A program made the translations under genes and the position numbers. From NCBI GenBank assembly GCA_964187785.1, contig OZ076409.1, positions 14,882,001 to 14,946,000 on the forward strand: a stretch of 64,000 nucleotides of DNA. Reading direction: 5' to 3'. Origin of the DNA: Amphiscolops sp. MND2022 (taxonomy: Eukaryota). The notes below the pieces were generated by a model that had not been told where the DNA came from, searched no databases, and was given only the letters and a program-made list of their open reading frames with translations. This document shows positions 1 to 59,533 of this stretch, piece after piece. How positions within the stretch are numbered: the first letter of the stretch is position 1; each line of letters opens with the position of its first letter.

Positions 1-311
1 TTAAACGGTACATGTATATTTCCGTGTGTTGCTCATTTGTATTGCATGTAGTTTAGATTTGTCAATTTCTTTCGTGACGTCATTGATTTGGCAGGTCTTT
101 GAACCTTACATGTATTGATCATTTCATTTTTGTGTGGCATAATTCTATTTGCGTGATTCGAAATAAAGTCGGCTGTTTTTATCGTTTCGTGGAGTTACAT
201 GTTGTTTGGGAATTAGCTGATTTATTGTGATGTTATGTGGATGGTGTTTCCCATCACAAGGAGGTTTTCGTAAGTCATTTAATATTTTCGAACTTCCATT
301 TAGACTAAATT

Positions 312-1034
312 CATCGTTTTGACATCCTCCAGCGAAGCTAGAGTATCGTGTCAGGCTGACGATAAATTCGATCACGATTTGATGGTAGTTTCCATCACAA
401 ATTCATCTCATTAATTGTTTTCATGTAAGTTCTGAATAATTGAATCGAGTTCATCGCTAATTCATCCTCTAGCCGAGCTAGAGTATTATGATAGCATGAA
501 CGTGAGTGCGTTCGCATTCTGATGGCATTTTCCATCTCCAATGCATCGCTAGTAAATATTGCATGTTGATTGGTCAAATTTTTGACTAAGTTCATCACTT
601 TTTCATCTCTCGTGTGTCTGAGATAAATTTTCATGTGATTTCATCCTTTTTCATCTCAAAATTTTTATGTGTTGTTTTTCTGGTTTTTTGGTCGTTTTTC
701 ATCCGTTTTACATCGTGTTTCGTCTTTTTGCGTATTTCATGTAGTTTTAAGTGATTGTTCATCTATTTTACATCTTCATGTTCGTTTTAAGTTGAAATTG
801 CATGTAATTGACTCGTTTTTGTGAATTTTCATCCGTAACTCATCGTGTGTTTAGAAATGTGGTTTTTCATGGCTAAATCGTTACGTTTACTTTGTTGGTC
901 TTTCTCAGTGCGTTTCTAGCTGCAGTAATCTCATGAATGAGGAAATCAGGATATGTTTTCGGTGTAGGGTTCTCGCGTAACCTGTACCTACTCTGATTGT
1001 TTCTAGACGGTCTAGAACTCATCCTTCCCTCATC
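312..1034 (-). repeat. Array of GATG-N7-GATG motifs (CATC-N7-CATC on +) in the pol tail and 3' noncoding region of element A
   Basis: Exact CATC-N7-CATC at 312, 393, 452, 533, 593, 700, 760, 830, 1020, plus an N6 variant near 642. Confidence 0.85.
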
Positions 1035-4000
1035 TTCAGTTTGCGTGTTTGTCTGTTGTGATTGATTTTCGTGTTGTTCGTCTCTCAGAGGTACTCTTAT
1101 CCTACTTTCATCGCGGGGGGGGGCGGTAGAATAATTTCCTCTTGCGTTCCAAATCTAACTGTAGGTGGTCTAAAGTTGTTGTGGTCAGTTTCTACTTGCT
1201 GATAGTCTATTCTCGTGGTTATTTCTGGTGGAATTACTTGTGGACTGTGTCGTTCTTGTACCTGCGGAACTATTTCTTCTGAAGGCTCTTCTTCGACTAA
1301 GTCTTGATCTAGATTGTCATTCTCATTCTGATCTACTTCGTCGGAATATTCGAGTCGAAAATGTCCGTGTCTTCAACCCTTTCAGTGTCTTGGTAGAGAT
1401 GTTTGGACACCTTGATGTCATCAATCGGAAATTCCGGTTTGAACAACCTCAGTCGCATTCTGTGGACGCACTGAGTCTGGTGTGTGCCTACTTTGCGGAT
1501 GATGTAGTTGCTATCGGATAGCACTTTCATCACCTTGTACGGTCCTTTCCAATGGAAAGTTTTAAACTCTTCTTTGCTTCTCTGAGAGTCGTACTTAGGA
1601 TCTAGTAGGAACACAAATTCATTCACCTTCAGTGGCTGTGCTCGTGCTTTTCTATCATAGTACATTTTGTACTTGTGATATGTGGAAATGATGTTATCTA
1701 GATTGTCTCTGAAGATGAAGTTCATTTTGTCTAGAATTTCATTCACGTCCTTGCACTTTGTTTCAGCCGGCTTGTTTGCGTTTCGGAATTGCAGATCTAG
1801 TGGGTTGTATGGTGTTCTGCCGTGGAAAATTTCAGTTGGTGAACATTTCAGTGAATCATGATACGTTGTGTTATGGGCCATGATTGCTATGTCGACATAG
1901 TGGTCCCATTGTGGTCTGTCTGCGTTTACACTAATTTTAAGGATCTTTTTCAGTTTCGCGTGCGTTCTCTCCACCATGCCTATTGTCTGTGCGTGCTTTA
2001 TCGTGGCATGGGAGATGTGAATATCAGCCGCTTTCGCGATTTCAGACAGAAGTTCAGCTGTAAACGCCGTGCCCTTGTCCGTCAGAATGTGCTTGGGCAC
2101 ATACGCGTGTTTCGTGAAGATCGACAGTAATCCTCTGACTACGGAATGTGTATCAGGTCTCTTCAGCGGAACGGCGAACAGGTAGCGTGAAAAAACGTCA
2201 ACAGCCGTCAGAATGTGTGTAAAACCGTTCGACGCCGGGAGTGGACCAACGATGTCTATTTCCAACAGGTCTTCTGGTCCGTCGCACGGGTCGTAGATTT
2301 TTTGTAACGGTGGACGTAGTTGCGTTTCTTTTATACTTTTAGATTTCATGCAGTTTTCACATCCGTCAAGGATTTTTTGAATTTTACAGGCTAAGTTAGG
2401 AGAGTAATATCTTTTACGAAGTTCGTACAACATTTTCTTTAAACCAGGGTGTCCTTGTACCGGGCTGTTATGTAGAGTCCTAATTATTTTCAAAATACAG
2501 TCTTCAGGAACAATTAACTGCTTGTGAGACTCCAGTCCCGTGTGATCAAAAAACTGTCTGTATAAGACACCGTTTACAACTTGTAGACGTTTTCGATTTT
2601 TGTGCAATTTTTGAAAAACTGATCTTGCATACTAACTGGGTGTTGCAAAATTTCAGTACCTTCTAAAAATCTAATCATTTTTTGAATAACCCAGTTATTT
2701 TTCTGGACCTGAATTAGATCGATCCCCTCAGCAGGGCTAACCTGACTCATTACCGGGTGTGATAATGATACTTTACGGTTGAATTGCGAGAGTTGAATCG
2801 GCTCGTCCACGTCTGTGAGGCGGTACGTCAGATGGTTGTCAGTCGCGAAGTCATCTGAGGCCGCTGTTCTCTCACAGTTGGTGAACTTCATCCCTTTCCC
2901 ATCGTCATGAGCCACGTCAGTGCCAGGTGCCAAGTTCATCTCTTTGACAACCTTCTGGCGCCTGCATCTGAGTGGTTCGCTCGTGGGAAAGTAATCAGGC
3001 TCGTCTTCCTCCTGTTTTGGTGTTCGGGAGGCGATGTCGATCTCGATTCTGTGAATTGGAATAGTATCAGTCAATTTTAAATGTACGCGGTCTTCAGGTC
3101 TAATCTCAAGACGAGATAAGTAATCCGCTGCGGGATTTTCAACTCCTGGTACATGTGCTAATAAAAAAATGAACTGAAGGGTTTGATCACAAAAATTCCA
3201 AAGTGAAGGCGGGATATGCTTCGCCTGAAAAAATCTAGTCAAGGCCTTATTGTCAGTCATAACAATGATGGGTTTTTTTGCACCCCACAAAGTGTGGCCA
3301 AATTCATCGAAGGCAAAGTGCATAGCTAAAAACTCATTGGCATACATTGTTAGAGACATCTGGCCGCCCTGAAAATTCTTAGAGCCAAATGCAACGGGGG
3401 CGTATGTTTGTTTGACTGACGGGTCAGCATAATCCTCAATTAACAAAACATAGCCGGCAGCGTGTTCGCTGGCGTCACACATGATTACCAATTGTTTATC
3501 AGGTAATGGCAATTTCAGAGACACTTTTGTTGCTTTTAACAAACTTTCATTGATTTCAAAAAGAGCATCTTTATGTTGTTGGCTCAGCTTGAAAGGGACG
3601 TCCTTCTTGATCAATTCCTGTAAACAACAAGTTTTATCAGCTAGGCGGGGAATATAAGACCTGTAAAAGTTTACAAAACCAAGATAACGTTGCAACGCTT
3701 TCACTGAATTGGGTGGTTTCAACTTGGTCAAGTAGTCTGTTACGCGTTTTTCAATGGGAGCAATACCGGTGCTAGAATTAGTTTTGCCCAAGTACTCAAT
3801 TTGCTTTTGTCCAAATTCACATTTACTCATGCTAAGTTTAAGACCAGCTTTGTTCAACTGCTGAAAAACAAGTTCAAGGTTATTAATCAGTTCGTCAGGG
3901 GTGTGTGCTGCAATTCCAATGTCATCAACATATTGAGCACACCGGTCTGCTTTGACCAAGGGGTCCAAATACTCACGGACTACACTTGTAAATGCTGACA

Positions 4001-5960
4001 AAGAACGATTAAGACCCTGTGCTAGACGTAAAAAGGCGAAAGTTCTAGAACCAAAATTAAACGATAACAGTTGGACGGACTGCTCATCGGCCATTGGAAT
4101 GCAATGGTAGGCCTGGGAACAATCAAGTTTACAGAAGTACTTTTTCCCGGCCATGTGTTGGGCAGCGTCAGCAATTGTTGTTACGGGATGGTTGTGCTCA
4201 CCGTAATCGTTTTTGATGAGATGGTTTATTCCTCTCAGGTCAACTAAAATCCTCAATTTACCATTAGGTTTACGTTGAGCAAATATGGGAGAAGAGTATT
4301 TGCTGTGAGGCAAGGTAGTTATAATCCCGTACTCTTGCATTAAAGCTAACTCCACGAGCAAATCGTCCTTCAAATTTGTCGGATTAGGGAGACTTAGTGA
4401 ATAAACAGGTTCTTCATGTTGGGGTGTTAACTTAACTTTAAAATCAGTATTCATACCAATATCAAAACGATGTCTAGCAAAAATGGAGTTGTACTTTACC
4501 AGCAACTCCTCTACCTGTAACCGTTGAGACGGAGTAAGAAGCGAGTCGTCCCAGTTGAAGTTCTTCAGGAAGTACATCCGTTGTTCATCGGATTGGGACG
4601 GGTCAAGCTTCTCGAGCTCTCGCAGTGCCAGAATCTCATCATAGATTCGTCGCTCATTTGCGTTGAGTTTGTGTGGCTCACTGCACGTCTCGGGAGTTGG
4701 GTACCACTTAGTTGACTTCATTTCAGGGTTCACGAACAGTTGGTTGATCACCGCTTCCGCCTCATCTGGGTACTTGGTGATCAAGTTCAAGTGTTCGACT
4801 GGCATGGGTGTGATGTTCGCCGCCTGATGTGGTGTCGGTATGCGAAAGTGTGCCAGAGTGGTGTTGGCATCAAGTGTGAACGTGTGATTGTTCGGGTTGG
4901 TGACCTGGATTGTCGTCTTGCCCTCATCTAGGTCAACCAAAGCTGAGGAAACAAGCAAACACGTCTTTCGCATGAACCCAGGTGAGCCCTCAACTGTACC
5001 AGTTGTAAGTGAGATGTCCGCGTCACTGTGGACCTGTATCATCACTTGATGGAGAGGAGGGATCACTGTTCTAGTACTGGAACACAAATCAATTAAACCA
5101 GTTTTGAATCTGTTGTTCTTTTGCTGTCTAACTTGCATGGACATCATGTGATTGGGGAAGTGGACAAGGTGGTTTTTTATGTCTAAGTTGACTGAGTACT
5201 TTTCAAAGAATGACATTCCAATTAAAATTGTGCCCATTGTTGGAAGGATTAGGAACGTTTCTTCAAAGACTTTTCCAGCAACGTAAAATCTAAGTAAGAC
5301 TTGCTTACGCACTGGGACTAAGTTCCCGTTTGCTATTTGAATTTTGAAATTCGGAGGGGGGAATTCTTGAAGGATGGCTTCTGGATGAGCCGTTGTTATT
5401 TTTCGCAATTCTGCTTCAGACATTGCGCTTTGAATTGCGCCTGTGTCTAACAGTGCATGGTTTTCGTATTTATCAAACTGAAGAGGGACGTACAGCATTT
5501 TATCTTTCTTGTTTAAATGTAAAGTTGGACTAAGAACGTGAATTTCTGTTTTAGTTGCATGTTTGTTAGCTTTTGAAATGTTAATACTACTATGTTTTGC
5601 ATGTTTTTTAATACTAAGCCGTTTGTCGATTGTTGTGTGTGAAGTCGAGTCGTCGTCTAGATGGTTGGTGTTCATCTCTTTGGCATCGTCCACCTGCCTC
5701 ATGGTGTTTTGTTGCCAGTTCATCGTTTGTTCATCGTTGATTTCAGCGAGTGGAGAAAAGCGGCTGCTGTTGCGTTGACGTGCATTTCCCATCGCTTTTT
5801 CATCGTTGGAAAGTCTTCGCTGACAGACTTCATCAGCTTTTGGTCGTTTGTCCGCTGAAGGCTGCCATTTCTTCATTGGACGGTTGTGAGTTGTTTGTTG
5901 AGTCTTAAGTCGTTTGTCGCGCGTGTCAATTGTAGCGGGCGGAAATCGTGGCTGAATCAA
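873..5960 (-). pseudogene. pol: pol of element A (PR-RT-RH-IN), frameshifted near 2600 and interrupted at 1333
   Basis: 1128-aa ORF (LLDTGA, CKLDCSQAY, QYVDD, MCDAS) plus 424-aa integrase ORF (LHNSPVQGHPG..CENC, EIDIV, LTDKG, VERTH, GPY). C-terminal tail RYRLRENP ends at a stop near 873. Confidence 0.9.
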
Positions 5961-5966
5961 AAACCC
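5957..5966 (-). promoter_or_regulatory. Putative -1 ribosomal frameshift site G GGT TTT at the gag/pol junction of A
   Basis: X XXY YYZ heptamer immediately before the gag TGA; the pol ORF is in the -1 frame. Confidence 0.7.
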
Positions 5967-7139
5967 TGGTTTATGTCTTCATCAGAGTAGCTTATTTGTT
6001 CGTCGTCTTCAGTAATTGCTTGCATTGGATTCATCGGCTTTTGTTGTCGTTTTAAATCTTGTCGTCTAGCCTTGTTGTCGTCCTGTGAACTCGTTGTGTA
6101 TGGAATCTTTCCATATGCAGAGCTGCTTTCCTTGGGGACGCGTCGTCTGCAATCCCTTACGGAGTGGCCTGTGTAACCGCAAATCTGACAGACCAACTTT
6201 GGATTGTATTTTGGTTTGTCGGGGTCAGCTACTTTTTTCATTGGGATTGCGTCCTCTTTCTTTATGCCGTTTGCTTCGTCTCGTTGTCGGGCGCGACATT
6301 CCGTTTTGCGGTGTCCTGTCTTTCCGCAGTTGAAACATTGTCCCTCAAATCGTTTTCGTTCTGTCGGTTGCGTTGTCGTCGTTGTTGCTGGTTTAGTAGT
6401 TGTGTTGGTCATTGGGGCCGAGGAGGTGACCGCGTTAAATGGTTGAATTGCCGTAGGTGGCGCGACGTACTGCTGGTACTGGTACTTTCTCATCAAGTAT
6501 GTCTTGATTTTTTCCGGTGAGCTCTCCTCCTTATTGGCCATTGTAAGTTCTTGTTGTATTTCGATCGACTGGAAGTTTGCCGAACAAGAACATTTTGATG
6601 ATTTTATCTGCGTCATCCCCAAATGCTTGTTTCGCCGTCTTCTTCAAGTTTTTGAGGAAGTCGCTGAATGTCTCCGTTGTGGGATCGTAACGGGCTTGAT
6701 CCCATTTGTAGCGCGCTACCTCTTTGAGGTCCTCTTTCGCGAATTCTTTTCTGAAGAGATCGAGCACATCTTTCAGCGTTGTCAGTGGTCTTATTTGGAT
6801 CGATTGCCAATACTCGATTGCTTCGTCTCTCAAAAGGCTTTGAAAGAAATGAAGCTTGTTCTCCTCAGTTATTTTGTAGGCTAACGGGCTGAGGTGGTTG
6901 AGGAGAAGGTGTTCAAATTCGACGAGTTTGTCTTTCTGTCCTCTGAAATTCGGTACGTGTGTCTGCAGTAGTTTTGTATTTGTTGTAGTGCTCTTTATGC
7001 GTTGCGGGATCGTCTCGATGGCGTTTAACAGCCGTTCTTCGTTGCTTCTGGGAGTTGAATCGCCTTCTTCGTCTGAGTCATATTCTTGGTATCGTCTGAA
7101 GTTTGTGAAACTTGATGTCGGGCGGGTGGAGCGGGTTTC

Positions 7140-7153
7140 TGTAACTGTCACCA
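7140..7153 (-). promoter_or_regulatory. Primer-binding site of A (TGGTGACAG...), inside the gag ORF
   Basis: TGG directly after ...CA. The same (T/G)GGTGACAG follows the proven repeat end in element C at 21256. Confidence 0.75.
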
Positions 7154-9132
7154 TGTCGTACCTATGCTGTTGGGCCGGCTTTGAAGGACCTTTTGAGCTA
7201 GACGGCTGCAATTCGTTATTATTCTTGCTTACTATCGCCATCATTAAGTCCTTCAGTTGACTAAACTCCTGGTGTAACTCGTTAATTCGGCGTTCATAAC
7301 TTTCTTTTATTTCAGATAACTGAGAAGAGATATCTGAATTGTCGTTGGTGTCAGAATCATTTGAGTTTGCCTGAGCCCTGTCTGGATCTGTTGGAGAAGA
7401 TGTTTCTGACGAAGAATTTATGACTCTACCGCTCCTAAGTTCGGTACCTTGATCTGGGTTCATGTAGCCGAGAGAAAAGAATTATGAGTGAAGACTGGAT
7501 TATTTGAGATGCTGTTTGATGTATTTTACTGATTCAAATGGCTATCTCAAAATTCACTAATCTGAACTGAGATGTTTTAGAGATGAAGTCGTACAAGCAA
7601 GTAAGTCGTTAGGTGAGAATAAGGAAATTAGCAAAGTAGTTAGGAAAGTTCATCCAATTTTCATCGCAATCGTAGATGCACCAAGGAAATTACTCAGTTT
7701 CAGTTCTATAGTTTCTGAAGATGAAATAGAGATATATTTTCAAGTAGATTTTGGCGTGAACTATTCAACTGGATGGTAGCTTGTCGCAATTTGGTCTGAG
7801 TAATCGCTAATGGCGGTCCAAATTACAGCAGTTCACGTGTCTTTTCGGTTGTTAAGACGCTAAATCTCTTACCAACCTTCTCTCATTGGCTGTTACCAGC
7901 TGGTGTTAAAATGGTAAGTCACGTGACCGGTGTTGTGAACTGCCGCAAAGTGGCCACGCATCATGGTACATCTACATATGTTAATGGTGTTTAGTCATCA
8001 ATTTACAATGTCGCAATTGCCTGCACGCAGCATCATGGTTTCTATAGCAACTAAAATGAGCTCAAATCGTTCAATAACGCACTAATTTCAAGTCAATTTA
8101 AGATAAAGCACAAATCGGGATGGGAAAACGATGTTTTCCGCTTATTCGAGCGCCAAAACCAATGATTTAAAAATTGAAGATGGAAATTCGATGAACTTGT
8201 AAGAATATTTGCTGATTTTCAAGTCTAGTTTAGCTCTGGATGAAAATGCGATGAATGGTGGTCTTTCTCGCTCGAAAATCAACACAATTTAAACTGACGA
8301 TGATAAAAGGATGAACTCCACTTATAATTTGCCAATTTCCAGCACAGATTATAATGACGATGAATTCGGGATGAATTCAGTCGATAAACGCTAATTCTAG
8401 CACAATTGAATTTTTGGCGATGGGTTTAAGATGAACTTGTCAGTTAAAACAGCAAATACCAAAGCAATACAAATTGGCGATGAGTTTAGGATGAACTCAC
8501 CAGTTAAAACACCGAATACTAAGGCAATTCAATTTAGCGATGAGTTTAGGATGAACTCATCCACTAAAATGGTTAATTTTCAGCACGAACGAAATCAAGA
8601 TGAATTAAGGATGGGTTTACTAAACAAATCAGATAACCAGCACTTTCACTCTTTTTTAGGATGGATTAAGGATGTACTTTCTCATTTCCCTTCTACGCTA
8701 GTGAATACGATGATTAAAGGATGAATTACTGTCCTCTAAGAAATGAGAAGCACATTGAAATTTCTTTACATGAAATACAACGATGAATTTAAGATGAAAT
8801 TACTAAAATAAGGTCCCATAAAATCCGCTGATGGATTAGTGATGAAAAGTCAGTTTAACGTCCCAATCGTTGTTCATATGCAATTCCGGAGATGAAATTG
8901 CGATGAACTTCATTCAAAATAGCTCCAAATTGAATCCGCTGATGGATCTAATGAATTTATCAGTCAATTCGGGTTCATCGTTAAGTCCGCTGATGGACTA
9001 GCGATGAACTTCATGAAAGTGTTGTCACGACTACAAGTCCTGAGGCGGGGAGCTAGTAGAAGTTAACATTTCGTCTCTCTTGTATCTCTCGGTCCAGTTT
9101 GACCCGAAAAACTTCTCTCCCTTGTCGTGACA
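7154..9132 (-). repeat. Probable 5' LTR of A (~2 kb), including the gag start
   Basis: TGTC...GACA termini and an adjacent PBS. No second copy in the window, so the outer boundary is inferred. Confidence 0.62.
8119..9006 (+). repeat. 60-bp-periodic array of GATG-N7-GATG motifs with largely non-conserved spacers
   Basis: Exact motif at 8119, 8179, 8239, 8299, 8359, 8419, 8479, 8539, 8599, then 8660, 8709, 8782, 8830, 8891, 8992. Confidence 0.92.
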
Positions 9133-10895
9133 AACCAATATTTATGAAATATAGCACATTCGAGACTATTTGGCAAGATCATTTATGCGGACACCGGAAC
9201 TAGAGCGCTCAGTATTAAGTAAATATATATAACTCAAACTCATGGGGGAATGGGGATTAAGTATAAGTAACGTAGGGTTGCTCACAACCATGGTTCTTAT
9301 TATATGACATCATATTGCCCATATCTAAGTACATAAGACATAATATTTACATTACAGATATTTAGTAGATTATATTTCCATCATGCTGGCATGACATTCG
9401 TTCTCAGCGATCATTATTCCACTGTGTTCAAATGCGCAGTGGTGAAGTAATCTGCCAAACCTGCACTCTCAACTTGTTCATTTTCGTTTGATTCAACTGA
9501 ACAGATTTCGTTGTTCCTTGCAGCATGGTCGGATTTTGAATTCCGGAGACTTTCCTCAGCCTACATCTGTCGACCTTCCATTCTCATCTAATATTTGGAA
9601 TTTAGCAAATCTCTATATTGAAAACGAGGCTGCTGGATAATTCGTTCTTTTCATCTTCTCTTTCCGAAATTGATCAAACACCGAAATTACTGATGAACCA
9701 AAATTGATCCGAAATACCACGCAGAAAACTTAAGGAAAAACGGAACGGCAAAAAAGGATTTCTGTTTATGTTTTGCGTTGGATAAAGTTTGTTTTCTGCC
9801 CAATGCTTCAGCTCAAAGCACGCATTACGACGCCAATCGGGTTTTTTTTTCAAGAAAAGACAAAAGTCAGTTTTCGCACCTCCCAAAATGTGTTTTCGAG
9901 AATTCACAAAAATTGTACACTTCAACGAATCAGCAGCGCCGCCAAAATGATTGGAAAATTCACACACTATTTTTCTTGAACACCCTTCTTGAACATGTTT
10001 CTGAAAAGTCTCTGGATTCTCTAACGCTTTCGGGCATCTTCAAACATTTTTTCGAATTCATCGAACGCTTTCGCAAGTCTGGGAACGTTTTATTGAATTG
10101 AATAAATCGATGAAGAAACGAAACACTGATACACAAACAGTATTTGATTAGAACAAATTCCAATGATAATTATGTTGTTTTGTGCAACATTGTTTTGTTT
10201 CATTTTTTGTTTCTAGATATTTCTTTGGTTTTAATTTCAAAAAACGAGGACGTTTTCAAAAAGGAAGGAAGTCTTGAATCTCCTGAATGACTGAAACTTG
10301 GATACCTCTCTACTTTAATCACTAAAAATCTGATTCTGTGATGAATTGTCTCTACATTGCAATAATGTTTTTGGGAAAACTTATCATCCACGTTCTATGA
10401 AGAAACATTCTTATTCTCCATTTTGTTGGTGTAAAGTTTTTCTAGAAGGTTGTTCATGACACAATGACGTCTGTCTCAAACTATGAACAACTTGCTGCAA
10501 TGCAATTATCTGCAGTTGTTCTCTATTTTTGCTCTACACCTGCGTTGATCAAACTTTGCCCATTATTATTAGCGCCTTTTCCATTTACCAACTTTTTTCT
10601 CCTTCTTCTTCTTCAATCTTCTTCAATTTCGATCAAGCTCGTAAAACAGCCAATGACGAACCTTTGTTAAAATCAGGTGGCAAAACAGACAAAACCAAAA
10701 ATACGCCTATGCGTTTACTTCCTAAAAAATCGCTCTTTTTTGGAATCGTTTTTCGACAATTCAAGCAACATATTGAACCCAAATCTACTCGACGACAGTC
10801 CCGATTTAAATCATGGAAGAAAAAGAAAGCAGTCAAACCATGAGAGAGTTTTGTAGGTGTGACATACGAAGGTCACAACCCAAAAAGAGCAACAG

Positions 10896-13800
10896 TGTTG
10901 TTGTCAAACAAACTCATAAACAACTGACTTAGCTACTGCTCTATTTATGTTTAGTTGATATGGTGTAAAAGATACATTACTCTACCATTATGTATTTGAG
11001 ATAGATACAATACAGCTGAAGAGATACTACTGTACCTAACCTGTTTTAAATTTAGATTTAGCGATCTTAACATGGCGCAGTAAGCAAGACTTCCTTTTAC
11101 TAAATTTGTTCACCCCTTTTACCCTTTCTACCCTACCAACATGCCACTACACTAGAATGGCCGTAGCAACCAAGATACAACCACCATATCTAGAAGACAC
11201 CGGATTAGACGGCAAGAAATTATATACACCCAAAGAATGGACCGAAAGACTCCGGCACTACATAAAAAGAATCTATAACATCGACATCAAACCGATACTA
11301 ACGGATGATACGGTACCAACCGGAGGCCCGTGGAATACAAAAGAACCATATATCAGACAAGATTTTATCTGGGGCGCCGGACCGTCAGCAATTGAAATCA
11401 TCACAAAAGGCGAATTCGATACGGATCCAGATACAATTACAATCGACAAAATAATACAGCTATTTAAAGAGTACTACATGCCGAAAAGAAATACATACCA
11501 TAGCCGCGGAGATTTTTTCTGGGCTAAACAAGAAGAAAACGAGACACCAGAAGAACACTGGAAAAAGCTGATAACACTCGAAAAGAACTGCGAATTCAAA
11601 GATATTAAACAGGAAGACATAATAATATCGAAATTCATCACGAGTATAACCGATAAAAAACTTCGGGAGAAACTTATCCGCGAGAAGACCCTCAACCTGA
11701 AAACCACCGTAGAGCTTATCACACAAAACAGCTACGACCGCCGACACAAACAATCTACCATACCAGCTGCACTTGCAAAAGAAAAAGAAATCAAAGAAGA
11801 ACCAATCCAAAAAATACAACCAAAGATCAAAACCGATAAATACGGTGATAAAACAACACAAAAGAAAAACAACTGCGGATTTCGTGGACAACAAAATTGG
11901 AACCCACAACATACATGCCCGGCAAAAAACGCGAAATGCAACAATTGCCAGAAATAGGCCACTTCGCACGAGTATGCCGCAGTAAACAAAACAGAAACGA
12001 CCAAAGAAGAATCAATTATCTGGAAGAAACAAGTTCAGAAGAAGAAGAAGACAGCGAACCCGAAGTAATCCGCCAAATAACACAAATAAACAAAATACTA
12101 CCCGACAACAATGACCACTACGGCGTCGAAATGATAATAAACGGGGAAAAGCAAAAATTTATCATCGACAGCGGATCTCCGGTCACCATCATGCCATACG
12201 ACCAGAAAATACACAAAACAAGAGAAATCAAACCAATGAAAGAAAGATACCAGGACGTAAACAAAAACGAAATCAAATTCATGGGAAAAACACGGGTAAC
12301 CGCGGAATACAACGGTGTATCAACCAAACTACCGATGCTAATCACCAAAAGAAACGATATCACACCACTACTGGGAGTAAATTGGTTAAAACAACTGCCA
12401 ATAACAATAAACAAAATCTCATTGAACAACGAAACCAACCAATCAGAAAGCGTATAAAAAAATATTACACAAACTCTCCAACACCAACCACACAATAAAA
12501 GACGCCGAAGTCAAAATACAAATAAAACCGGGATGCTACCCAATACAACAAAAAGCACGACCGATACCCTACCATTTGCAAGAAGATGTAAAAAACGAAC
12601 TGAACCGACTAATAGAATCCGGACACATAGAAAGACTAGAAACAATCGAAGAAGATTGCTTCGTATCACCCGTAGTAATTACGGTAAAGAAAGACAAATC
12701 CGTCAAAATTGCACTAGACGCCAGAAAACTGAACGATTGCTGCATAAAGAAAAGACCACACATGCCGAACATGGATGAACTACTCAACCAAATATCCGCA
12801 GAATTATCAAAAAACGATACCGACCCAATTTGGATATCCGTAATAGACCTGGACTATGCATACGGCCAAATGAAATTAGCGCCCGATACAAGCAAACTTG
12901 CAACTTCGCAATCACAGGAGAAAAAATCAATGGATATTACCGTTTCCGAAAAAGATTTTACGGCCCAGCAGACATACCCACAAAATTCCAAGAGAAGATA
13001 GACCGTACGCTCGGACACGAAACACCCGTATGGCTAGACGATATCATAGTGGTCACACTAAGCACAAAAGAAAAATACACCCAAAAATTAGAATCAGTAC
13101 TCAGAAAACTTAAAAACGAAGGCTACAAGGCGAGCAAGAAAAAGTCAAAATTTTACTTGAAAGAGACAGTCTGGCTGGGACACACTATTGCCCAGGATGG
13201 AATAAGACCGAACAAAGAAAAGACGGAAGCCATAAACAAACTAAACCCACCAACCAACACAAAAACACTCAAATCCTTTTTGGGGGCCATCCAATACTTT
13301 GCAAAATTCATTCCAAACTTATCCAAAAAACCAACAACATGAGACAATTACTCAAGAAAAACACGAAATGGGAGTGGACAGAAGAACGAAACACCGATTT
13401 CAACAAAATCAACAAAGAACTAACTTCGCAACCATGCCTTGCACACTACAACGGAAACAAAGAAAACATTGTAACCTTCGACGCTTGCGGTACCGGTCTT
13501 GAAATAGCATTATGGCAGAAACAAAGCAATGGAGACCTAAAACCAATAGCATTCGCCAGCCGATACCTTAACGACGCAGAAAAAAATATTCAGTCGGAGA
13601 ACTAGAACTACTGGCGGTAGTATGGGGATTAGAACGGTTCAGATTTCACCTATACGGAAAACAAGTTCAATTATTCTCCGACCACCAAGCCCTGGAACCG
13701 CTTTTGAAGAAGAATAAATCAAATAAACAATATAGTGCCCGATTAACCGGTGGCTTGACAGACTCAATCATTTCGACATCACATTAAAATACCCCGCGGG

Positions 13801-19222: not shown

Positions 19223-19296
19223 ATTCAATTCAATTCAATTCAATTCAATTCAATTCAATTCAATTCAATTCAATTCAATTCAATTCAATTCAATTC
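19223..19296 (+). repeat. (CAATT)n microsatellite, ~15 units
   Basis: Perfect pentamer run. Confidence 0.97.
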
Positions 19297-21255: not shown

Positions 21256-22336
21256 GGGTGACAGGAGCCAACCGACTACTCCACACACAAGGCTCTCAAA
21301 AACTAAATGCCACAGTAGGATCACATGCAGACAAACTTGTCAAACTTGACATCAAAACCCCTTGACCCGGTTAATCAAATCGCCTTAGCAATAGAAAACT
21401 GGCGAGCAAGAACTCCTCACAGTCACTTTTTCACCCAAAAAACACATTAACATTTAACGGAAAAAAACGAGAAAAATGAAAAATTCGAATACTTCGAATC
21501 CTGTTTCACACAACACTTCGAATGCAACTAAACCTAACAGAGGACATGAAAATTAACCATTTTCACGCCCACCTCAGGGGTTTGGCGCTGAAGACATTCA
21601 AGAACATACAAGCACGACTTTGGAAGACATTCTAAAAGTTTTCGGACGAAAATATGTCAAACCAGAGTCCAGTGCATCAACAAAGCATAGATTCAACAGA
21701 CTCTCATTCGACCCAGAAAATCAGAAACTCCCAGATCTTCTAGAAGAACTTCAGGAGAGTGCCGCAAAAAGCGTTTGGGGATAACGCCCATCGAATGATA
21801 GAGAATTTACTCTATGCGAAAATGCCTCCCCACCTTATGAAGTCAATTAACCAAGCCTACCTCGAAAATGTCACAACGATCAAATCGTCAAACATCTTGA
21901 AAGAAAGATGGAATCAAACGGTCTAGAGGCAGACGAACCCCTTGTCAAAACTCAAATGACTGTTACCAAAAAGGAACAAAACACTGAAAAACCCAACAAA
22001 AAACAAAATGACAAAACCAAAAAACAGACTCCGAAAACAGTACCCAATAAAACACTCAAAAATGACCAATGCCGTTATTGCGAAGATGCCAGCGACATGA
22101 TGGCTGACTGCCCTGAATTAGCTAAACAGCGTAAAATAGAAGAAGACCTGGATGCACCCAATGCCCTATTTGCAAAACCCCATGAAAAAATTGCTATTTT
22201 GGTGCCAATATGGATAATCGACCATCAAATGGAATTTGACAGAAGCACAAGAGAAAGTTTTCGAAGAGTACAAGCAAGTTAAAAAACCAGTCAGACCAAA
22301 AATGGAACGACATCAACGTCGAAAGGTTTAAACTAG
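20688..22336 (+). pseudogene. gag: gag of element C (starts inside the LTR), ending at slippery site T TTA AAC TAG (22327-22336)
   Basis: Fragments 20794-21069, 21153-21365, 21908-22282 with a degenerate knuckle CRYC..MMADC; similarity to gag A (KINHFHAHLRG..AL.TF). Confidence 0.8.
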
Positions 22337-27192: not shown

Positions 27193-30100
27193 TCAGTTCT
27201 CCTTAGTTTTTGAAGATTTCTGACAAATCTTTTTCGAATCCTCTCCTTGCTCCGTCCTTGAGCACCGACTGGGGGAAACACTGACGCGTCCCAAAATAAG
27301 ATCAGGAGAAGGAGTACTATCGACACTACTAGTCCGGTTTTCACTAGGTGTAGTAGTGGAAGAAGTCACTGCAGGTCTCTCTAACCAGAGAACAGCCTTC
27401 CTGTACCCAGTCTCTAACTTCCCTTGTAATGTCATTCTCCGAGGAATACATCTTTTCAAGAATTTCCAGATTGAAAATTTTTTATCTGACAGCAGCTCCG
27501 CCCCTCGTCCCAAAAGACGAAAAACGCGACTAATAGCTCCAGCATCTCGAAATAAACTTGATACATGCGGCACCGATTAGTAGGAAATCTGCAGACTGAC
27601 CACACATGACACGAATGAGCTCTTATCGGACTCAAGAATATGATTCGGCACCTCAAAAATAGGGGAGACCTCCACTATTGGGGCAAGACATAAACATGAG
27701 TTTGAACAACTGTAACAGCTCAGGACGACACTGGACCTCATAGTGCGTAACAATGAATTGAATCCAATCGTCATAGTCAGGAACCGTCCCAGTACGTAGT
27801 TTGGATACGAACGACCGGTATTGACTGACAGCTTTTACTTTGTCACTTGCCGAAAATAAATCGACTGCCACAAAATGGATAGACAACTTCTCAATAGCAG
27901 ACACATAAACATCCTCAGGGCTCCCTACGATCACCGGAGAACAGCAGAAAGTCCTCTGAGTAAATCGGATTTTACAATATCATGCGTCATTAGCTGTTTA
28001 AAAAACGGCCTTGCAAAAACTCACAGATTGCTCTATAAGTTTGCCAGGGCGAGGCAGCTTACTAGACGATAATAATCCTCTTTCAGTATGAACTGATCTG
28101 CAGCTTTAAATGGTATTTCAGTAGAGTCCAAATCCAAAGCAAGAATGGAATTCCAGTCCGAAATGTTCCCTAGAGTGCTATCGGGCAAATTATTTTGCAA
28201 CTGAGAATAGGTAAACACGGCAAATTGACTGAAAAGGCGGAACCCGCTGTCGAGTCGCTTTTTAATCCCTGAGAAAGCAGAATCATCTGAAACACACCAA
28301 ACGATTACAAATAAAACGCCAATGTACAACAAAAGGAACTTATTCGTGGAATTAACCGACTAATACGAACAAACAATCATTTAATTGGATACAAGAAGTT
28401 AATGAACACCCAACAAGTTTTCTGTTCTAATGCGCTGGTTATGCTGCATTGCACTGATCGAGCAATGACAACTATACGTCACTAAGCGGTTCGAGGTGTG
28501 ACGACTATACGTCACTATGCGGTTAGAGGTGTGACGACTATACGTCACTATGCAGAAATGAGAATAAAAGTGTGCGGCAGTAGAAAGTGCCAGAAAATAG
28601 ACACAAATGCCACTGCAGGACGGAAAAAGAAATGACAACTACAAGTGTAAACGTTTTTGAAATCTGACTGAGAGGAAACTTTAGACTTATTCACAAAAGT
28701 AGGAACCCGATAGAATCTCCATCAAAAAATGTTGATACACAAATGCGAAGAGTTGTATCTGGAACTCCTAGTACTGGTTGAAACTGTCTTAAATGGAAAT
28801 CCCCAGAAGGTGAAATAACTAACAGTGATCAAGGACGCATCTGATGATGAACAATCTGGCAAGATAAGCCGTATTCAGCCGAAAACATTCGTCAAGTGTA
28901 TTGGGCTGAAAAAAATACGTAGGATAAGTGATAGCAAAACTAACTATACAAAATAATGTGAGTAGAGATAGTTACCTCTTCCAGGAGAAAGTCCAAAATT
29001 GTTCTGAAATCGTGACTCTCGATAATTTGGGCAGTCGTTGTAGCAAGGCTGCGCACGAATTCACTTGCGCCAAGTGAATTGCCAATCGATGGAGCTTTTT
29101 AGTCCCAGATAAACGAGAACTTAGACACTCATAAAGTTCATCTTCAAATCCAATTAAAGAAACGCAGAATGGGAGTTCTTCAAAGAAGAGACTGAGGAAA
29201 GTAGCCATGAGAAAAAGGATCTTTCGTGGTAACAACAGTCCTCTCGGTGCCCCGCCGATGCAAACTCGGTGCCTTGTACTTTCTATCCAAAAGCAGAGAA
29301 TGACGTAAGATGCTGTGGTTGTGTGCTGTACAGCAAGAGAAAAATAGCCAGAGGACGACATGGCCTTGACACAGTAGTCCATTAGTTCTCGGAACAGGTA
29401 AACCAAAGTTCCCTGTAAATGGCGAGAGTGTTAAAATTTTATCTAATTGACTAATGTTCACAAAAAACATGGTGCTAATATCACTTAAGGATTCAAAAGA
29501 AAAAGAGAATTTTCAACTTAGCAGAAGAAAATTGTACAAAAAACGGGACTTACAAAGATACGCTGCTGACTCCAATTTTGCACAGACAGGCAGTCACTTG
29601 ATGTTAAACGGACTAGTTCATCGTACATCCCTGTCAGACTGGCTATGTTTCTTCCATATCTTAACCCAAACTCCAGGGTGTTGATCTGTGATAGTATCCT
29701 CTCCGTTGGACTGGTAGTCACACTGAAGTCCGGAATCGACTGCTGTCCTACAAGTGACCGGTGAGAATCAAGCTGAAGTGGTATGGGATCATTATTCTTC
29801 GCTTCCTTTTTCGCACCCTGTAGTGCAACACCAAGCAATTCTTTTTCGTCCCGGCCATAGAGAGTCATCCCCGGTATCTCCAGTCTTATGCGATGCTCTC
29901 TGATCAAGTGGGAGTCAAAGCAATAATGGGAGAAGAACTTCAAGCTTCCGCGATTCATGAAAGACAGCTCAACCTCACAGACACGGCACCTTTTGCACGG
30001 AGTCTTGTCTTTAACTAGGGGTCCTGTTGCTGGAAACTTCAAGACAGGGTGTCGCTTAAACATGCTTCCAGTCAAGGAGTCTTTTGGTCGTCTTCGTTTC

Positions 30101-30870
30101 CCTCTAGCCATTGTAGAGCCTTCATCAACCCCATGGGGAACGATGTCAGTGCTGGTATTGGCAACCATTTCTTCTTGGCTAGAGGTTGTTGCTAAAGTGG
30201 TGGGGATAACATCGTCTACGACCGTAAGAGACAAAGGTTGAGAGAGATCAGCATCAACTCCAGTGACGAATGACTGAGGGATCCTGCCGAGAACATTGCC
30301 TGCCTGGTAATGCTAAGGCTTGGGAGAGTAGTCACTGGATAAATAATCTCATTCGGAAGAACTTCGGTAGAAGGTGGATTCTTTATACAACCCTGAATAA
30401 TAGGATTATTTGGCACTTGTGTAGAGGAACTACCTTGAGCATGGAGTGAGTTGTCGTGCTGCCGGATTAACTGGCCAAACCGTGGCGATGGAGCTTGAGA
30501 AACATCAGGAGGATCCAAACTCCCAGGAAGGTCTTGGGCAAAGTCACCCAATGATGTCTCCATAGGTTTGGCAATGGCAGAAGATCCAGTAGCAACTGGA
30601 CTGGTCCTAGATGGTCAATTTTCTTTAGGAGGTTCATTTAGTTCGTGTCTTTCGCCAGGAGAGCTTGGGAGAGCAGGTGGCGGTGATGTTCCAACTGTTA
30701 TTTCTTCAACAATCCGTGAAGGGGCATCAACAGGAGAGTCTCCAACTCCAATAGGCTTCAATAAATGAGGCGTTCCGACTTTTAATGAAGTATAAACCTT
30801 TCGAGTGAACTAGAAGGCGTGACCTGAGCCAATCCTTGTCCAACAAAAACAAATTATCTGTTGTCTGAAT
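27193..30870 (-). pseudogene. Antisense spliced Zn-finger / hAT-transposase-like gene of element C (decayed)
   Basis: Finger remnant RCRVCEVELSFMNRGSLKFFSHYCFDSH; LFRELMD..SGYFSLAVQ..LCFW; PELLQLFKL..SC; GT-AG intron 29553-29413. Colinear with the 55262-59533 gene of D. Confidence 0.78.
28466..28556 (+). repeat. 3 x 33-bp tandem repeat (GACGACTATACGTCACTATGCGGTTAGAGGTGT) within the antisense gene of C, probably intronic
   Basis: Three consecutive units visible. Confidence 0.85.
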
Positions 30871-31589: not shown

Positions 31590-31830
31590 CAACAGATAGT
31601 ATGCGGCAGTATGCAGATTTACAGCAAAGACTACGCGGCAGTATGCGGATTGACCAGTAACAAGTATGCGGCAGTACACGGATTGACTAGCAACGAGTAT
31701 GCAGCAGTATGCGGATTGGCTAGTAACGAGTATGCGGCAAGATGCGGATTGACTAGTAACGAGTAGGCGGCAGTATGCAGATCTACAACAAAGAGTATGC
31801 GGTAGTATGCGGATCGATTAGTGACGCATA
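31590..31830 (+). repeat. ~7 x 33-bp tandem repeat (GAGTATGCGGCAGTATGCGGATTGACTAGTAAC-like)
   Basis: Periodic units; the translation repeats YAAVCGLTSNE. Confidence 0.9.
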
Positions 31831-46738: not shown

Positions 46739-46849
46739 CTGTAGATACAATATGACGTGTAGCGATTGGTAGAAAAAGGGAAACAATAAAGGTAGATCAC
46801 TTGTGACTGATAGGAGATTAGAAGTAAAGCAATTTGAAAAAAAAACATA

Positions 46850-54220: not shown

Positions 54221-55261
54221 TATGAATTTTTTAGCTATTTTGATGAGGATTGAGGCAACTGGTTAGAAGTAAGATTCTGAGCTGAATGAATTTATCAGTC
54301 TCGGGGTTTTAGCCGAGACGGGCCTTTTCCGAAGTTTCCAATTCAGCGGGAGAAACTTAGGTTGATCGTCTCGATTCGATGTAAACTTTTATGAATGGAA
54401 TTCTCAAATGAGCTTACGGTCTTTATTAATTGGTGTTTTACCCCTCATCTCAACAAGCATCAAAGGGGGTGTGAATAACTCTCAAGTTGTTGATATCAAA
54501 TATTTCTCTCTCAAGTGGGTAATTAACAACCTGCCTCACAGCAATTAGCGGCGTGCGACAAGAAAACTTCCCAAGATGGCTTTAGCCAATCAGAGTTAGG
54601 CTCTGATAAATTGAAAAATTAAATAATAAAATGGCGAAAATAATAAACCAAAAAATAATTCAAAATGGCGGATTTTTAACTAGAAATAACTAAGGAAACT
54701 GAACGAAAACAATAAAGTGTAACTGGTCAAACGGCCGGAATAGGCCACTAACTAAGTAGGTCGTAGATAACAAGGTTTTGTACACTTCGCTGGCAGACTC
54801 CATGTACGGAATAAATATGTAAATAATCCCATAATATTAGTCTGGTAATAATCTTCAGCCACGAACTCCAACTTCTAATTCTATTACCCCATTTCAATTC
54901 CAATTCAATTCCAATTATCATTCCATTTATTTTTCATTTGTAATTTTAATCTTCATCTCCATCTTCATCTTCATTGTCCGCTTTGTCTTTGTGTCTGTTT
55001 CGGACCTCGCCCTGCTTCATCCCCGAGCTCTTCTAATTCCCTTCTTCAACAACGTCCGGATTGGGACTTCGTCCAAAAGGCGCCTCCAACAGAATGTCTT
55101 CAAATACAGGTTGGTTTGATTTCCTTCTATTTTGAACTAGTTCAACTTGATCAGGGTTGAATTTGTTCACAAACTGCTTCCTGCCTCCACTAGTGAACGC
55201 GTGATAAAATCGTTTCACTCAAATTTTCAAAGCACTTCCGGAAGTTTTCTAATGCGGCGTA

Positions 55262-58200
55262 ATGGATTTCTTTCAAGGAAGCTTACCGCCAAATTTCATC
55301 TCTTTCTGTTTAGATAACCAGAATCTTGATGAACAACAAGTTCAAACCAGCAACGCAGCTGACAATTCTGCTGGGGCTATTCAACGCCCAGTCCCCATTT
55401 CCATGTCTGGATATGTTCCTGGGATCAATCCTTCACCGCCTCCTTTTCCTCCGATAAGGACGTTCCTCTCTCAAATGCAACAGTTGACCGCTGATTCCCC
55501 TTTTAGCAATGAAAGTAACGTTGACGTCACAGCGTATGCAGATGAGATGGTACAACGGATGGAGATTTCGCAGGGGTTAATTGGTACAGATCCTACTAAT
55601 CTTGAGGAAGAAGAGCCGTCTCTGGCACAAAGCCCAGTTGTCCAAGACGTGGGTCGCGATCCCGTTCAAGTGAGGGCCAGTACTCCTACCCCACTCGAAC
55701 AGTCAGGAACAGAAGTCGTTAGCACTTCACAACTTGTGTCTTCGTTGTCAATCGTGCCACAATCACAGTCTGGCTTCCCTGAGTTGCGCGTTCTTCAGGA
55801 CCAGACACAAGAGATGTCTGAGGCTTCCTTTTTGCAGTCTGAGGGGAATGTCTCTTCTTCAGTCACAGAACCTCCTCCACTTCCTGGGGGAAGAGACCAA
55901 ACCGAGGACATTGGCGAGTCTAGTGATATCAATCCAGCTTCAGAAAACGCCAGTCAAGTAGAATATCCCGCACTATATGTCGTGAACCCATTCGACTTGG
56001 CACAGCAATCAGAGACTGGAGGTGAATCGAGCTCGGAAACTCACGATCCAGGCCAACCGAGCACATCCAGGGCTGGCCAACCAGGTCAAAGTGATGCTTT
56101 GCGAGATTTGTCAGGGCGAAGTCGAGCCACCTTGAAACAGTACTTTGAGACTGAGGACCCTTACACCTTCCCGGTCGGACAAAGAGTGGTTGCGTTCACT
56201 GAGCCACAAGTTTACCACCTGCTCCGAGTTTTAACTGATGAGGCCATTAGCATGACCTGCTCAACTATGGAGAGGATGGTGATTGGAGCTGTCAAAGGTA
56301 CACCCGCAACTACTCCTTCAAGGACAGACAAATTCCGGACCCGAGCCCGCTCATTCACACCTGACCCCAATACATCTGTCATATCTGATTCTGAAGGGAC
56401 TTCGGCCGAATATGGACTAGGATCTGGGTCACGAGCTGACACGAGTCTGTCCCAAGACGTCAACGGTTTCCTTGATCCCAATGAGAGCGACAGTGCTACC
56501 GAAATGGCTCTCATCAATCAGGCTCTCGGAATTGCAGATTCCAGGGGATCTCCACAAACTCCCCAGCCAACACAGCCGCAGGATTCTTCTGAGGAGGGAG
56601 CTGGGACAGGGGAAAAAGATAGCCTCGATATTGCCCTCTCTGAGATCCGGAATGGGACATCCACCCAAAGGTCCCGGAAAGGCACTGCAGCTGCTAAATC
56701 AGCTAAAGCGAAAAAGGCTTCTCGGCGAGGTGTGCCCATGAGAGAAGAGTTCCTCTCTAAAATCAAGTGGACGAGATCTTTCATCTCTGGACCTTCTGAT
56801 CCCTTGCACAATCCATATATGGTATGGTGCCATATGTGTAAGAAGAACTTCAGTGTGAAAACAAAAGGCGCCGTTGAGATCCTACGCCATCACAGGACTG
56901 AAAAACATCTACGTCGGGACCAGAGTTGGAGGTACGAGCACCTCAAAACAGTAGATCACGTATCTGGAAAGGTACAACATCGTGTCAGGGGGAGGAATGG
57001 CAAGATCCTTAGCAAGAAAGAACTCGCTGATGAGTTGCGCAAATTTATACACACAGAGCTCGTCGACGCTGGGGAAAGAAATCCGTTTTATGAGGATTAC
57101 CTTCAAGGCCACACTACTGCTCCCATCTCTCCACAGTCTCGATTACGCACGCAGATATGTCTCTTGGGGGACTTTGTTCAGAGTTCAGGAGATTTGGGAC
57201 TGCTTCGAAAACTGTGGACAAGAGTTGGAAGTTATACTGAGTTTCGAACAGCCTTCCAGGACTTCAATTGGAATGAAGACCACATCATGGTAAGATTTCT
57301 CAGATGTTTTCCAAAAGGTTGAGCTAGGGGGTAGAGAAGGACCAGGAAAGTGACGACATGTTGTCCATCTAATTTTGTTCCGTTTCAGGCCATCTTCCAA
57401 CACGTCTTCAACTGTCTAATGGGAGACATAGCTGACCAGGTCTCCGCCTCCCAGCATTTCGGCGTTGAATTTGAGAAGAGAGGGGCCAACCGCCACATGT
57501 CTCTGCGATTCTGGAAAGGGACGAAACTCTGTCGAGTGTTCATCTGCAGAAGTAGTCTTGCTGGCGCTGGACTGACCGAGGAACTGGGCTCCCTAGCACG
57601 GCTGCTATCCGTTGTGTCGACTGCTCCTGACATAGTTGCCATCTCAGGTTGCGCTGTGGACCTGATCAGGACTGTGGACCAACACCCATCTTACCCGCGA
57701 GGAGTGCAGAGCTGCTTTCGCTTTGAGTTGCTTGATCTGCGCACACTGATGCATAAGAAGAGTTACAGTGTGTTTGGCAACATCGACATGTTTTCAGTCC
57801 TCCAAAGCCTCTTAGTCTCACTTGGAGGAGGTTTGTCTGAAGACTGGGTCACAGAGTCCCCTGATCTTGTCCGGGTGAGTCTAGTTTGTATATTTGATTT
57901 ACATTACACTGGTGGGGGGGTGGTAAGCAGTCTCAGTTGAGATTCCAACCCTGAGGATTACTTTGTTTAGGCAATCACCACCTGCAAATTAGAAGTAGAG
58001 AAGATTCCTGAGCTTTGCCGAATTTTGTCAAAGAAGTGGAAAACAATCCTCCGCTACCTCACAATCCACTCACCACGTCAAGAGAACCAGGGCGTGCACA
58101 ACAAGGTTATGGACTTCAAATGGCATTTCCTTTACATAAAGAAATGTTGTAGTTGCTCATCTTGCATTGTCGTTGGTGGGTAAGTCCAAAGGTGTTCACT

Positions 58201-59533
58201 CTGCTTCTTTCCTAGGTCCAGAGCTTCGAATGGTCCCTCATCGTGGACGACTTCTTTGCAGTCAAATTGGAGCTTTTCCAACGATTGGTCAACGATTGTG
58301 AGTATTCTTAATCCACCAAGGTCCCTTTGGTCCGTTGTCCTTATAAGGATCGTTGATTTGTGAATTTCAGATGTCATCAGCTTCGCCACCCATTTGAGTC
58401 AGAGACGTGATGCCTCCTTCTTCCTTTGCGGCGAGGTCTGCAAATACATCAACCGCCTCTGCTCTCGTATCTTTCAGCCTGATACCGTGCCACTGGAGAA
58501 CGCCTGGTTCTTATTGATGGATTTCCAGATGAACCAGGGCAAGTTCATGGAAGACGAGGACTTTCTGGTGCGTCTCAAGATCTCTGGCAAAGTCACTTCA
58601 GCGAGTAACTTGAAAGCAGCTGGCCTCCACTTTAACAAGAAGTCGAGTAAGGCAGCCATCAGTAAGACCGCTGATCAGGCCAAGTCAGATTTTGTGGCGA
58701 GCGCCAGAAGTTACGTCAAGTTCCTGTTGTCACAAGTCCTCCAGCATACCGAACTCAGTTCTGATCTCATCAAAGGGTTGGCAGCGTTCGACCCATACAT
58801 CCTCTTCAAAAGACCAGTGGAAGTTGCCCTACGACATTTTGATTGCTTGTACTCCACGTTCCAGTTGCGTTTCTGGGTCTCCGAGTTCAATGAGTCAGCC
58901 TGCCGAGACGAGTACGTAGCCCTATTGGACTACCTCAGAAACAACCATTCCGCTGAATTTAGTGCTGCCAATGATTCCCCTGATCTCATTGATTTCTTCA
59001 TGAATTTGGAATTCCTTCAGTCTCGAGATCATCTTTGTTATTTGTTCAAGCTAAGCTGTCTTTGTATAACAACTGTCAGTCCTGAGTATCCTCCCGTTTC
59101 CTTTGGAAGAATCAATACAGCCATGCTTCAGTCCCGTTTGGTAGACGTGATTTTACCCTGCCAGAGTTATTTATCTTCTGATCCTGATTCCTTGTTGGCC
59201 TGCTGCACTGAATCCCAGCTTGAGAGGTTCCAGCAGTTGTCTTCTACTTTCGGGCAATCCGCTTTCGCTGCCGATTATGACCCTTGGCCTTTTGTAGACG
59301 GTTTTGGTCGAACTGCTATCTACAAGTCCCTTGTCGCTTCCCACCGTTCTGTGCTTTCTGGGTCAGAATTCCAGTTCCGTAGTCCCACTCTTGCTGATAC
59401 TTCTTCCGTCAAAGATGCTCCTGCTTACAGACTGCCTAGTGACAGTAAGAGAAGACGAATGGAGAGGGCCGTTTCTCGTTCTACGGCTTCATCTGTTGGC
59501 GACGAATCCTCAGCTAGTAGCCCTAAAGACTAA
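55262..59533 (+). CDS. Antisense multi-exon gene, ~1,290 aa: long disordered N-terminus, C2H2/BED-like Zn finger, hAT-transposase-like body. Exons 55262-57289, 57389-57874, 57971-58105, 58216-58297, 58371-59533; possible extra first exon 55094-55109 spliced to 55314
   Basis: GT-AG introns of 99, 96, 110 and 73 bp join all segments in frame with no stops (third donor GTTATG is weak). WCHMCKKNFSVKTKGAVEILRHHRTEKH; HFGVEFE..MSLRFW; LIKGLAAFDP; HLCYLFKLSCLC. Confidence 0.8.

Follow-up and report, generated by a model that had tools for sequence, protein, structure and literature searches.

The window analysed here (64,000 nucleotides of Amphiscolops sp. MND2022, assembly GCA_964187785.1, contig OZ076409.1, forward-strand positions 14,882,001 to 14,946,000) contains an array in which the word GATG recurs in pairs separated by seven bases, the pairs themselves standing at largely regular steps in a retrotransposon that we call element A. 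The question raised by this locus is whether the array is an ordinary tandem repeat in decay or a set of sites held in place by selection, and, if the latter, what would read them.

The dyad array upstream of gag

Element A is a Ty3/Gypsy element on the minus strand, in which Pfam recognised a gag zinc knuckle followed by protease, RT, RNase H and integrase in that order. Its gag family has 194 matches in ENA contigs and forms clusters of up to 380 members, and the pol cluster of the family has 1,482 members. The array lies 650–1540 bp upstream of the gag start, in the following surroundings.

875..5978, minus strand: element A pol, which encodes protease, RT, RNase H and integrase and is spread over several frames in the present copy
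5957..7463, minus strand: gag of element A with two zinc knuckles, in two frames in the present copy
7834..7925, no strand assigned: two CACGTG boxes and one CCAAT box, words of promoter type lying between the array and gag
8119..8658, plus strand: regular block, nine 60-bp units with GATG-N7-GATG at the start of each, a decayed tandem repeat without indels
8660..9006, plus strand: irregular block, six further dyads at steps of 61, 49, 73, 48, 61 and 101 bp
9023..9132, no strand assigned: 110-bp segment between 9-bp inverted repeats, directly beyond the array

The CACGTG and CCAAT words agree with promoter consensus words and presumably have that function. The 110-bp segment may be an element end or a pair of factor sites. 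Position 9123 within it is the sole match in the window to the ZBED1 site consensus quoted in PMC7471704, and the 9-mer of its ends is found again at 41614, where an isolated dyad (41645) lies 31 bp away. The label that first placed the array in an LTR came from the original prediction; no LTR pair is visible in the window, self-BLAST found no second copy of the upstream array region there, and the 3ʹ end of element A runs off position 1. Two PBS-like TGG words occur on the minus strand, at ~9137 and ~7683, neither preceded by CA and neither canonical. A PBS at ~9137 would place the array in the leader, and one at ~7683 would place it in the LTR; no tRNA gene was available for comparison with these words. 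Further out, at 9600–10200, the depth of sequencing run X1 was raised, with loose ends at 9700 and 9880, and this region is probably another repeat family bounding element A.

Direct counting on the plus strand of 8119–9006 gave exactly 15 GATG-N7-GATG dyads, starting at 8119, 8179, 8239, 8299, 8359, 8419, 8479, 8539, 8599, 8660, 8709, 8782, 8830, 8891 and 8992, compared with a mean of 0.04 and a maximum of 2 in 2000 dinucleotide shuffles; the 15 exact copies of the original prediction, the first nine of them 60 bp apart, were thus reproduced. Its 11-bp distance between half-sites, one helical turn, was also recovered: 30 of the 31 GATG words in 8100–9020 are paired at 11 bp, and among gap lengths from 3 to 13 only N7 was productive, all others yielding zero dyads in 8119–9006. 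The second half-site is followed by AA in most dyads (12 and 13 of 15). TRF detected only 8414–8559 of the regular block.

When the nine regular units were aligned, the spacers showed a mean identity of 36.9%, compared with 27.8 ± 1.1% after shuffling (maximum 0.324 in 5000), and of 35.0% without unit 7, indicating that the nine units descend from one 60-mer. Units 6 and 7 are 78% identical, and unit 7 is a recent duplicate of unit 6. The spacers, which had been described as unique, therefore share ancestry. Nine of the 60 columns are invariant across the nine units, namely the eight motif bases and one T, and no indel separates the regular units despite the 37% spacer identity. The flanks in the irregular block have no detectable relation to the regular block (z 0.7).

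To set a neutral expectation for these columns, arrays were simulated on a star tree with eight units, no indels and five divergence levels, 3000 runs each (15,000 arrays). At 37–40% identity the mean number of invariant columns was 0.5–0.8 and nine were never reached (3000 runs each); at 46%, the identity of the whole units, the mean was 1.9 and nine were reached in one of 3000 runs. With nine invariant columns in one of 15,000 simulated arrays overall, the proposal that motif and phase are kept beyond ordinary minisatellite decay stood up. The unit alignment that had been suggested as its check gave a divided answer: the motif is invariant and the spacers are less conserved, as proposed, but the spacers are weakly related and the array proves, from its aligned units, to be an old 60-bp tandem repeat in which the motif has been protected.

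The 60-bp period is divisible by three, and one could read the block as the remnant of a protein-coding repeat of 20 residues, frame-preserving and carrying D-x-x-x-M, with a stop-free frame of 104 codons at 8410–8721. That frame, however, contains five stops in units 2–5, stops occur in all six frames, identity is equal across the codon positions (0.365, 0.352 and 0.362), synonymous positions of the motif are invariant, and the later spacings break the frame. We regard a coding origin as scarcely credible.

CRISPR repeats are conserved sequences of ~23–55 bp separated by unrelated spacers. The present array departs from this pattern, since its invariant motif bases number eight only and its spacers are related to one another; moreover, no cas family was found among the 22 ORFs scanned (54 are listed in the window), and the array matched neither phage sequences nor Rfam. 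The initial remark that nothing at this locus points to CRISPR accordingly holds, and the array is not a CRISPR array. Spacer 8 (8554–8598) has a 17-base exact match to 21547–21563 in the gag of element C (E 1e-4, AT-rich), which is probably due to chance.

Dyads along element A and in other copies

The dyad is a property of the whole element. Positions 1–9200 contain 33 dyads, where 0.95 (from local word counts) or 0.25 (from outside counts) would be expected, while the remaining 54.8 kb of the window contain 2, against 1.5 expected. The 18 dyads of element A beyond 8119–9006, which the original prediction had overlooked, are distributed as follows.

312..844, minus strand: second cluster behind pol, eight exact dyads and one N6 variant (642), in the orientation opposite to the first array
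1020..1034, minus strand: dyad in the C-terminal tail of pol
2889..2903, minus strand: dyad in the RNase H-integrase linker
4575..4589, minus strand: dyad within pol, ahead of the RT core; 11 of 12 family copies retain it and 12 of 12 sister-subfamily copies lack it
5673..5804, minus strand: three dyads at 5790, 5721 and 5673 (steps of 69 and 48 bp) in the linker that precedes the protease, encoding in-frame D-x-x-x-M
7571..7665: two dyads in the leader before gag in opposite orientations (7571 plus, 7651 minus), 80 bp apart
229 and 5373, plus strand each: further single dyads

The flanks in the second cluster show no in-register relation to the first array (z 0.8). The six dyads within pol lie in the sense frame and encode D-[EDAVG]-x-x-M, and six of the seven peptides of this form in the element A ORFs examined lie on exact dyad codons, synonymous positions included.

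These sites bear on the simplest alternative, a neutral decaying minisatellite whose motif seems conserved because the units were chosen by it. The shared ancestry of the spacers (z 6.3) and the recent duplication of units 6 and 7 suit such an origin, and tandem arrays are common in Gypsy elements according to the accessible part of PMC11963269. The simulated arrays, however, almost never produced the observed invariance, and the 18 outlying dyads lie in unrelated sequence, six of them in a coding frame and kept between subfamilies. Neutral decay is therefore largely refuted, and we consider it very improbable.

To follow the dyads into other copies, we used the pol peptide as a trace, which shows residues and not codons; the non-coding array is known from a single copy. 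The comparison took in 16 of the ~1,480 pol sequences of the family, 19 from a sister subfamily and 93 from the next clade; members of a cluster, of which 15 were listed in each case, are at least 90% alike and so not independent. The trace was kept at 46 of 50 site-observations in the 16 family sequences and at 31 of 34 linker site-observations in the 19 sister-subfamily sequences. Between the two groups the RT-RNase H core is identical at 421 of 460 positions, and the linkers at 63 of 128 (49%) and 29 of 83 (35%). The sister subfamily has lost one site and gained one, the RT-proximal site being absent in 12/12 and an extra site present in 6/6.

Because the DNA consensus, with AA after the half-site, predicts K or N after the M, the trace was also searched with this residue added. 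It occurred 35 times in 15,815 aa of the family and 27 times in 11,948 aa of the sister subfamily, and was absent from 75,759 aa of the 93 next-clade sequences. The clades have supports of 98/99 and 96/97 (tree of 12 rows, midpoint root), and the dyad motif, as followed through its peptide trace, is confined to one pol clade.

Searches with gag or integrase queries in metagenome, viral and prokaryote collections found no further DNA copy of element A. A scan for the dyad pattern gave 0 matches in the prokaryote and viral collections and at least 115 loci in metagenomes, none of which resembled the window by BLASTN or TBLASTN; among the metagenome matches listed, the pattern lay in tandem repeats that were either simple or coding. 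A single sequencing run contained 6% of the window words; its contigs leave out 7201–9200 and so speak neither for nor against the array.

Spacing geometry and the putative reader of the motif

Steps between neighbouring dyads were taken from three places, namely the irregular block, the cluster behind pol and the linker in pol, and the regular block contributed a single value; these steps are 48–49, 59–61, 69–73, 81, 101 or 107 bp. On the 16 spacings, the Rayleigh R was 0.72 for periods of 10–11, a value reached by one of 5000 random sets (p ~2e-4); on the 11 distinct spacing values, the ladder had a p of 0.007. The ladder is compatible with any period from 10 to 11.5, so that it may also have arisen by slippage on the 11-bp half-site repeat. 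Two spacings in the sister subfamily, 63 and 51 bp, are off the ladder.

Could the motif act in RNA? The clusters are oppositely oriented and thus complementary on the sense strand, so that they could pair (in end-to-end contact, dimerisation or packaging), or Gag could read the words. The predicted duplex reaches −256 kcal/mol, compared with −174 ± 7 in plain shuffles and −221 ± 9 when the motifs were kept and the rest shuffled, where 0 of 30 shuffles attained −256 kcal/mol. When the spacer blocks were permuted intact, however, the value was −240 ± 10 and 3 of 40 nulls attained the observed one. The longest helix is 9 bp, the local alignment score of 82 lies within the null (64 ± 10, maximum 100), the cluster spacings are mismatched and Rfam gave no match; the ladder of 10–11 bp, moreover, suits a double helix. 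An RNA function appears improbable.

We favour, with some confidence, the reading that the array is a selected, family-specific set of protein-binding sites and the main cluster of a cis-element that extends over the whole of element A. In the mechanism that we infer, a sequence-specific protein would occupy double-stranded DNA at each dyad in the form of a head-to-tail pair, with cooperation between adjacent pairs at a fixed rotational offset. Selection would then hold motif and phase and let the spacer drift, and the bound platform may keep the integrated copy open or transcribed.

The nature of the binder is a separate matter. A host factor may bind the array as an enhancer or insulator, in the manner of Su(Hw) on Drosophila gypsy, which would contradict only the notion that the element encodes its own binder. 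No accessory gene was seen for element A in the window, the array adjoins the promoter-type words, and the gypsy insulator, in the accessible text of PMC2493044, consists of twelve repeats that lie in the 5ʹ untranslated region and are recognised by a zinc-finger protein of the host. Against a host binder, the next clade of the same genome set lacks the motif and elements C and D have different ones, a turnover between families that a co-evolving element protein explains more easily than a host factor, and only the two dyads already mentioned occur in the 54.8 kb outside element A. A host binder is a serious candidate that we nevertheless hold to be rather doubtful.

Dyad codes and antisense genes in elements C and D/E

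Elements C and D stand on a distant branch from element A (0.48 or more). Both have dyads of their own and, in addition, an antisense zinc-finger gene that lies behind pol and has several exons.

55253..59533, plus strand: element D, antisense gene of several exons behind pol; it encodes a CxxC..H-x5-H finger, and its last exon resembles a hAT dimerisation domain
28972..30614, minus strand: element C, antisense finger gene distantly homologous to that of D (gene span 27193–30614), between two 33-bp motif arrays (28437–28554 and 31598–31844)
20068–20253, 28437–28554, 31598–31844 and 34150–34335: element C dyad arrays with 33- and 65-bp periods
51957, 53033, 53092, 54733 and 60014: GGCC-N6-GGCC sites in D/E

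The first exon of the D gene belongs to a large family (177 matches; 997 clusters at 50% identity), and in the antisense finger family the C, C, H, H pattern is invariant or nearly so. A domain profile of the D finger found the element C ORF at E 2e-6; the full-length profile of the D-type protein missed it, and hhalign of the D-type protein with the C homolog gave E 0.0035 and a probability of 9%. For the last exon of D, the atlas leans to Dimer_Tnp_hAT (score 0.92) with a recognition of 1906, below the mark of 2300. The antisense proteins of C and D have no Pfam match and no PDB sequence match, and their structure models are poor (pLDDT 55 and 39), with no usable fold match. That the product is a hAT-derived BED protein is thus a lead only. 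No homolog of the antisense finger gene was found in positions 1–11000, which include element A; in C and D this gene ends within ~230 bp of the pol stop, whereas element A has ~875 bp without one up to the window edge.

The dyad of element C is TATRC-N5-TATRC, with half-sites 10 bp apart, in the four arrays listed, and the units of these arrays are more alike than those of element A. All five palindromic GGCC-N6-GGCC dyads of the window, spaced at 10 bp, lie in D/E (0.13 expected). One of them is in the pol tail, like the 1020 site of element A, and two others are 59 bp apart. Element B and the region 35400–51800 have no comparable dyad enrichment. The dyads of C and D together with the antisense finger gene suggest a self-regulating system like VANC.

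Several further observations were made in this part of the window. Sense ORFs without a known family lie upstream of a second gag start at 53441–54262 (minus) in D/E and at 32613–33098 (plus) in C, which points to tandem copies that carry an additional ORF ahead of gag. A 1.85-kb direct repeat (92%) joins 19421–21255 and 33503–35354; because it takes in the gag 5ʹ end, it is not a plain LTR pair. The pol of element D (59765–64000, minus) stays open in a single frame for at least 1411 codons. An (ATTCA)n microsatellite lies at 19223–19296, and a tRNA-like stretch at 43500–43575, spotted by eye and not called by ARAGORN, is perhaps a tRNA-derived repeat.

On analogy with these genes, the binder of the element A array may be encoded by the element lineage itself, as a hAT-transposase-derived zinc finger like the antisense genes of C and D, with motif and protein changing together in each family as in VANDAL/VANC. 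More tentatively, a large Gypsy radiation could have captured a hAT transposase gene and turned it into a sequence-specific regulator, each family co-evolving its own helically phased dyad code (GATG-N7-GATG, TATRC-N5-TATRC and GGCC-N6-GGCC) across the whole element, pol linkers included; this would amount to VANC-like anti-silencing or activation in a retroelement. CpG was undepleted in all seven regions measured (o/e 0.86–1.39), so that removal of DNA methylation is an unlikely output.

The hAT connection can also be turned round, with the inverted clusters as subterminal repeats, bound by the transposase, of a DNA transposon of hAT type that encloses gag-pol or has captured it. The BED fingers of Hermes bind in a cooperative manner to subterminal words of 4 bp (PMC10368747, accessible part), and the same source describes, as in element A, 4-bp words followed by AT-rich DNA, in many copies and in opposite orientation at the left and right ends. 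The hAT-like genes in the related elements and the missing LTR pair would also fit. In Hermes, by contrast, the repeats serve cut-and-paste transposition near terminal inverted repeats, whereas those here lie inside a retroelement; dyads occur within pol linkers and evolve with the pol clade, the Gypsy domain set of pol is complete, and neither an element-spanning terminal inverted repeat nor a target duplication was seen. We judge such a transposon to be quite improbable.

Comparison with described systems and significance

By the features compared, the element A array is a member of none of four described systems: VANDAL/VANC, Sirevirus, the gypsy insulator and Retand. VANDAL/VANC is an anti-silencing system of Arabidopsis, in which, in the accessible text of PMC5735166, a short motif has been amassed by tandem-repeat formation in several non-coding regions, as in element A, and differs between related families. 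Its accessory protein may have a counterpart in the extra gene of the related elements C and D, a candidate binder, and none was seen for element A, the 3ʹ end of which is outside the window. VANDAL, however, is a Mutator-like DNA transposon and element A a Gypsy gag-pol element; the VANC motif is one 9-mer, whereas element A has a spaced dyad on a 10–11 bp ladder that is also found in coding linkers; and VANC removes DNA methylation, whereas CpG in the window is undepleted.

Sireviruses, as far as the accessible part of PMC2829016 goes, are LTR retrotransposons in which a family-specific motif, present in 8–32 copies, is clustered ahead of the promoter and once more behind pol, and the palindromic GGCC-N6-GGCC of element D is closer to them than the dyad of element A. 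They are plant Ty1/Copia elements with a palindromic CGG-CCG core, unlike element A, a Gypsy element with a direct-repeat dyad, inverted clusters and sites in pol. The Drosophila gypsy insulator has about a dozen repeated sites upstream of gag, where element A has 15, but it is a single cluster bound by the host protein Su(Hw), and the motif of element A differs from the Su(Hw) core (PMC2493044 and PMC5416891, accessible parts). Among the plant Gypsy elements, Retand, Grande and RIRE2 resemble C and D in an antisense ORF behind pol, predicted to be DNA-binding, and in family-specific tandem arrays. Retand differs in its TRP28 domain (PF04195), where C and D have the CxxC..H-x5-H finger and the hAT-like end and gave no TRP28 match at E up to 1, and conservation of motif and phase is not described in the accessible text on the three plant elements (PMC11963269, PMC7264820).

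In the titles and abstracts of the part of the literature covered, we found no Gypsy element with a hAT-derived antisense gene or with helically phased dyad arrays. A preprint (10.64898/2026.08.24.746577) argues that transposases are intrinsic sequence-specific activators, and its main text, as accessible, does not use LTR or retrotransposon as whole words. Anti-silencing by ORFs of LTR elements is treated as open in the accessible part of PMC12844716, and VANC alone is mentioned in that of PMC12859917.

How retrotransposons reach a thousand copies and more against host silencing is an open question. Plant DNA transposons provide documented cases of sequence-specific counter-silencing, and in the part of the literature covered, antisense ORFs and arrays of Gypsy elements are without an assigned function. 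For the element-wide, clade-specific cis-code described here, the motif, the geometry and a candidate binder family are all named. With families as large as these (1,482 members in the pol cluster, 997 clusters for the accessory gene), co-evolution of protein and motif is directly testable. If the binder is a host factor, element A would still be an unusually clean case of a cis-code shaping the sequence of the pol protein; if a hAT transposase gene was indeed captured, these elements would have a self-addressed system in a genome without CpG depletion.
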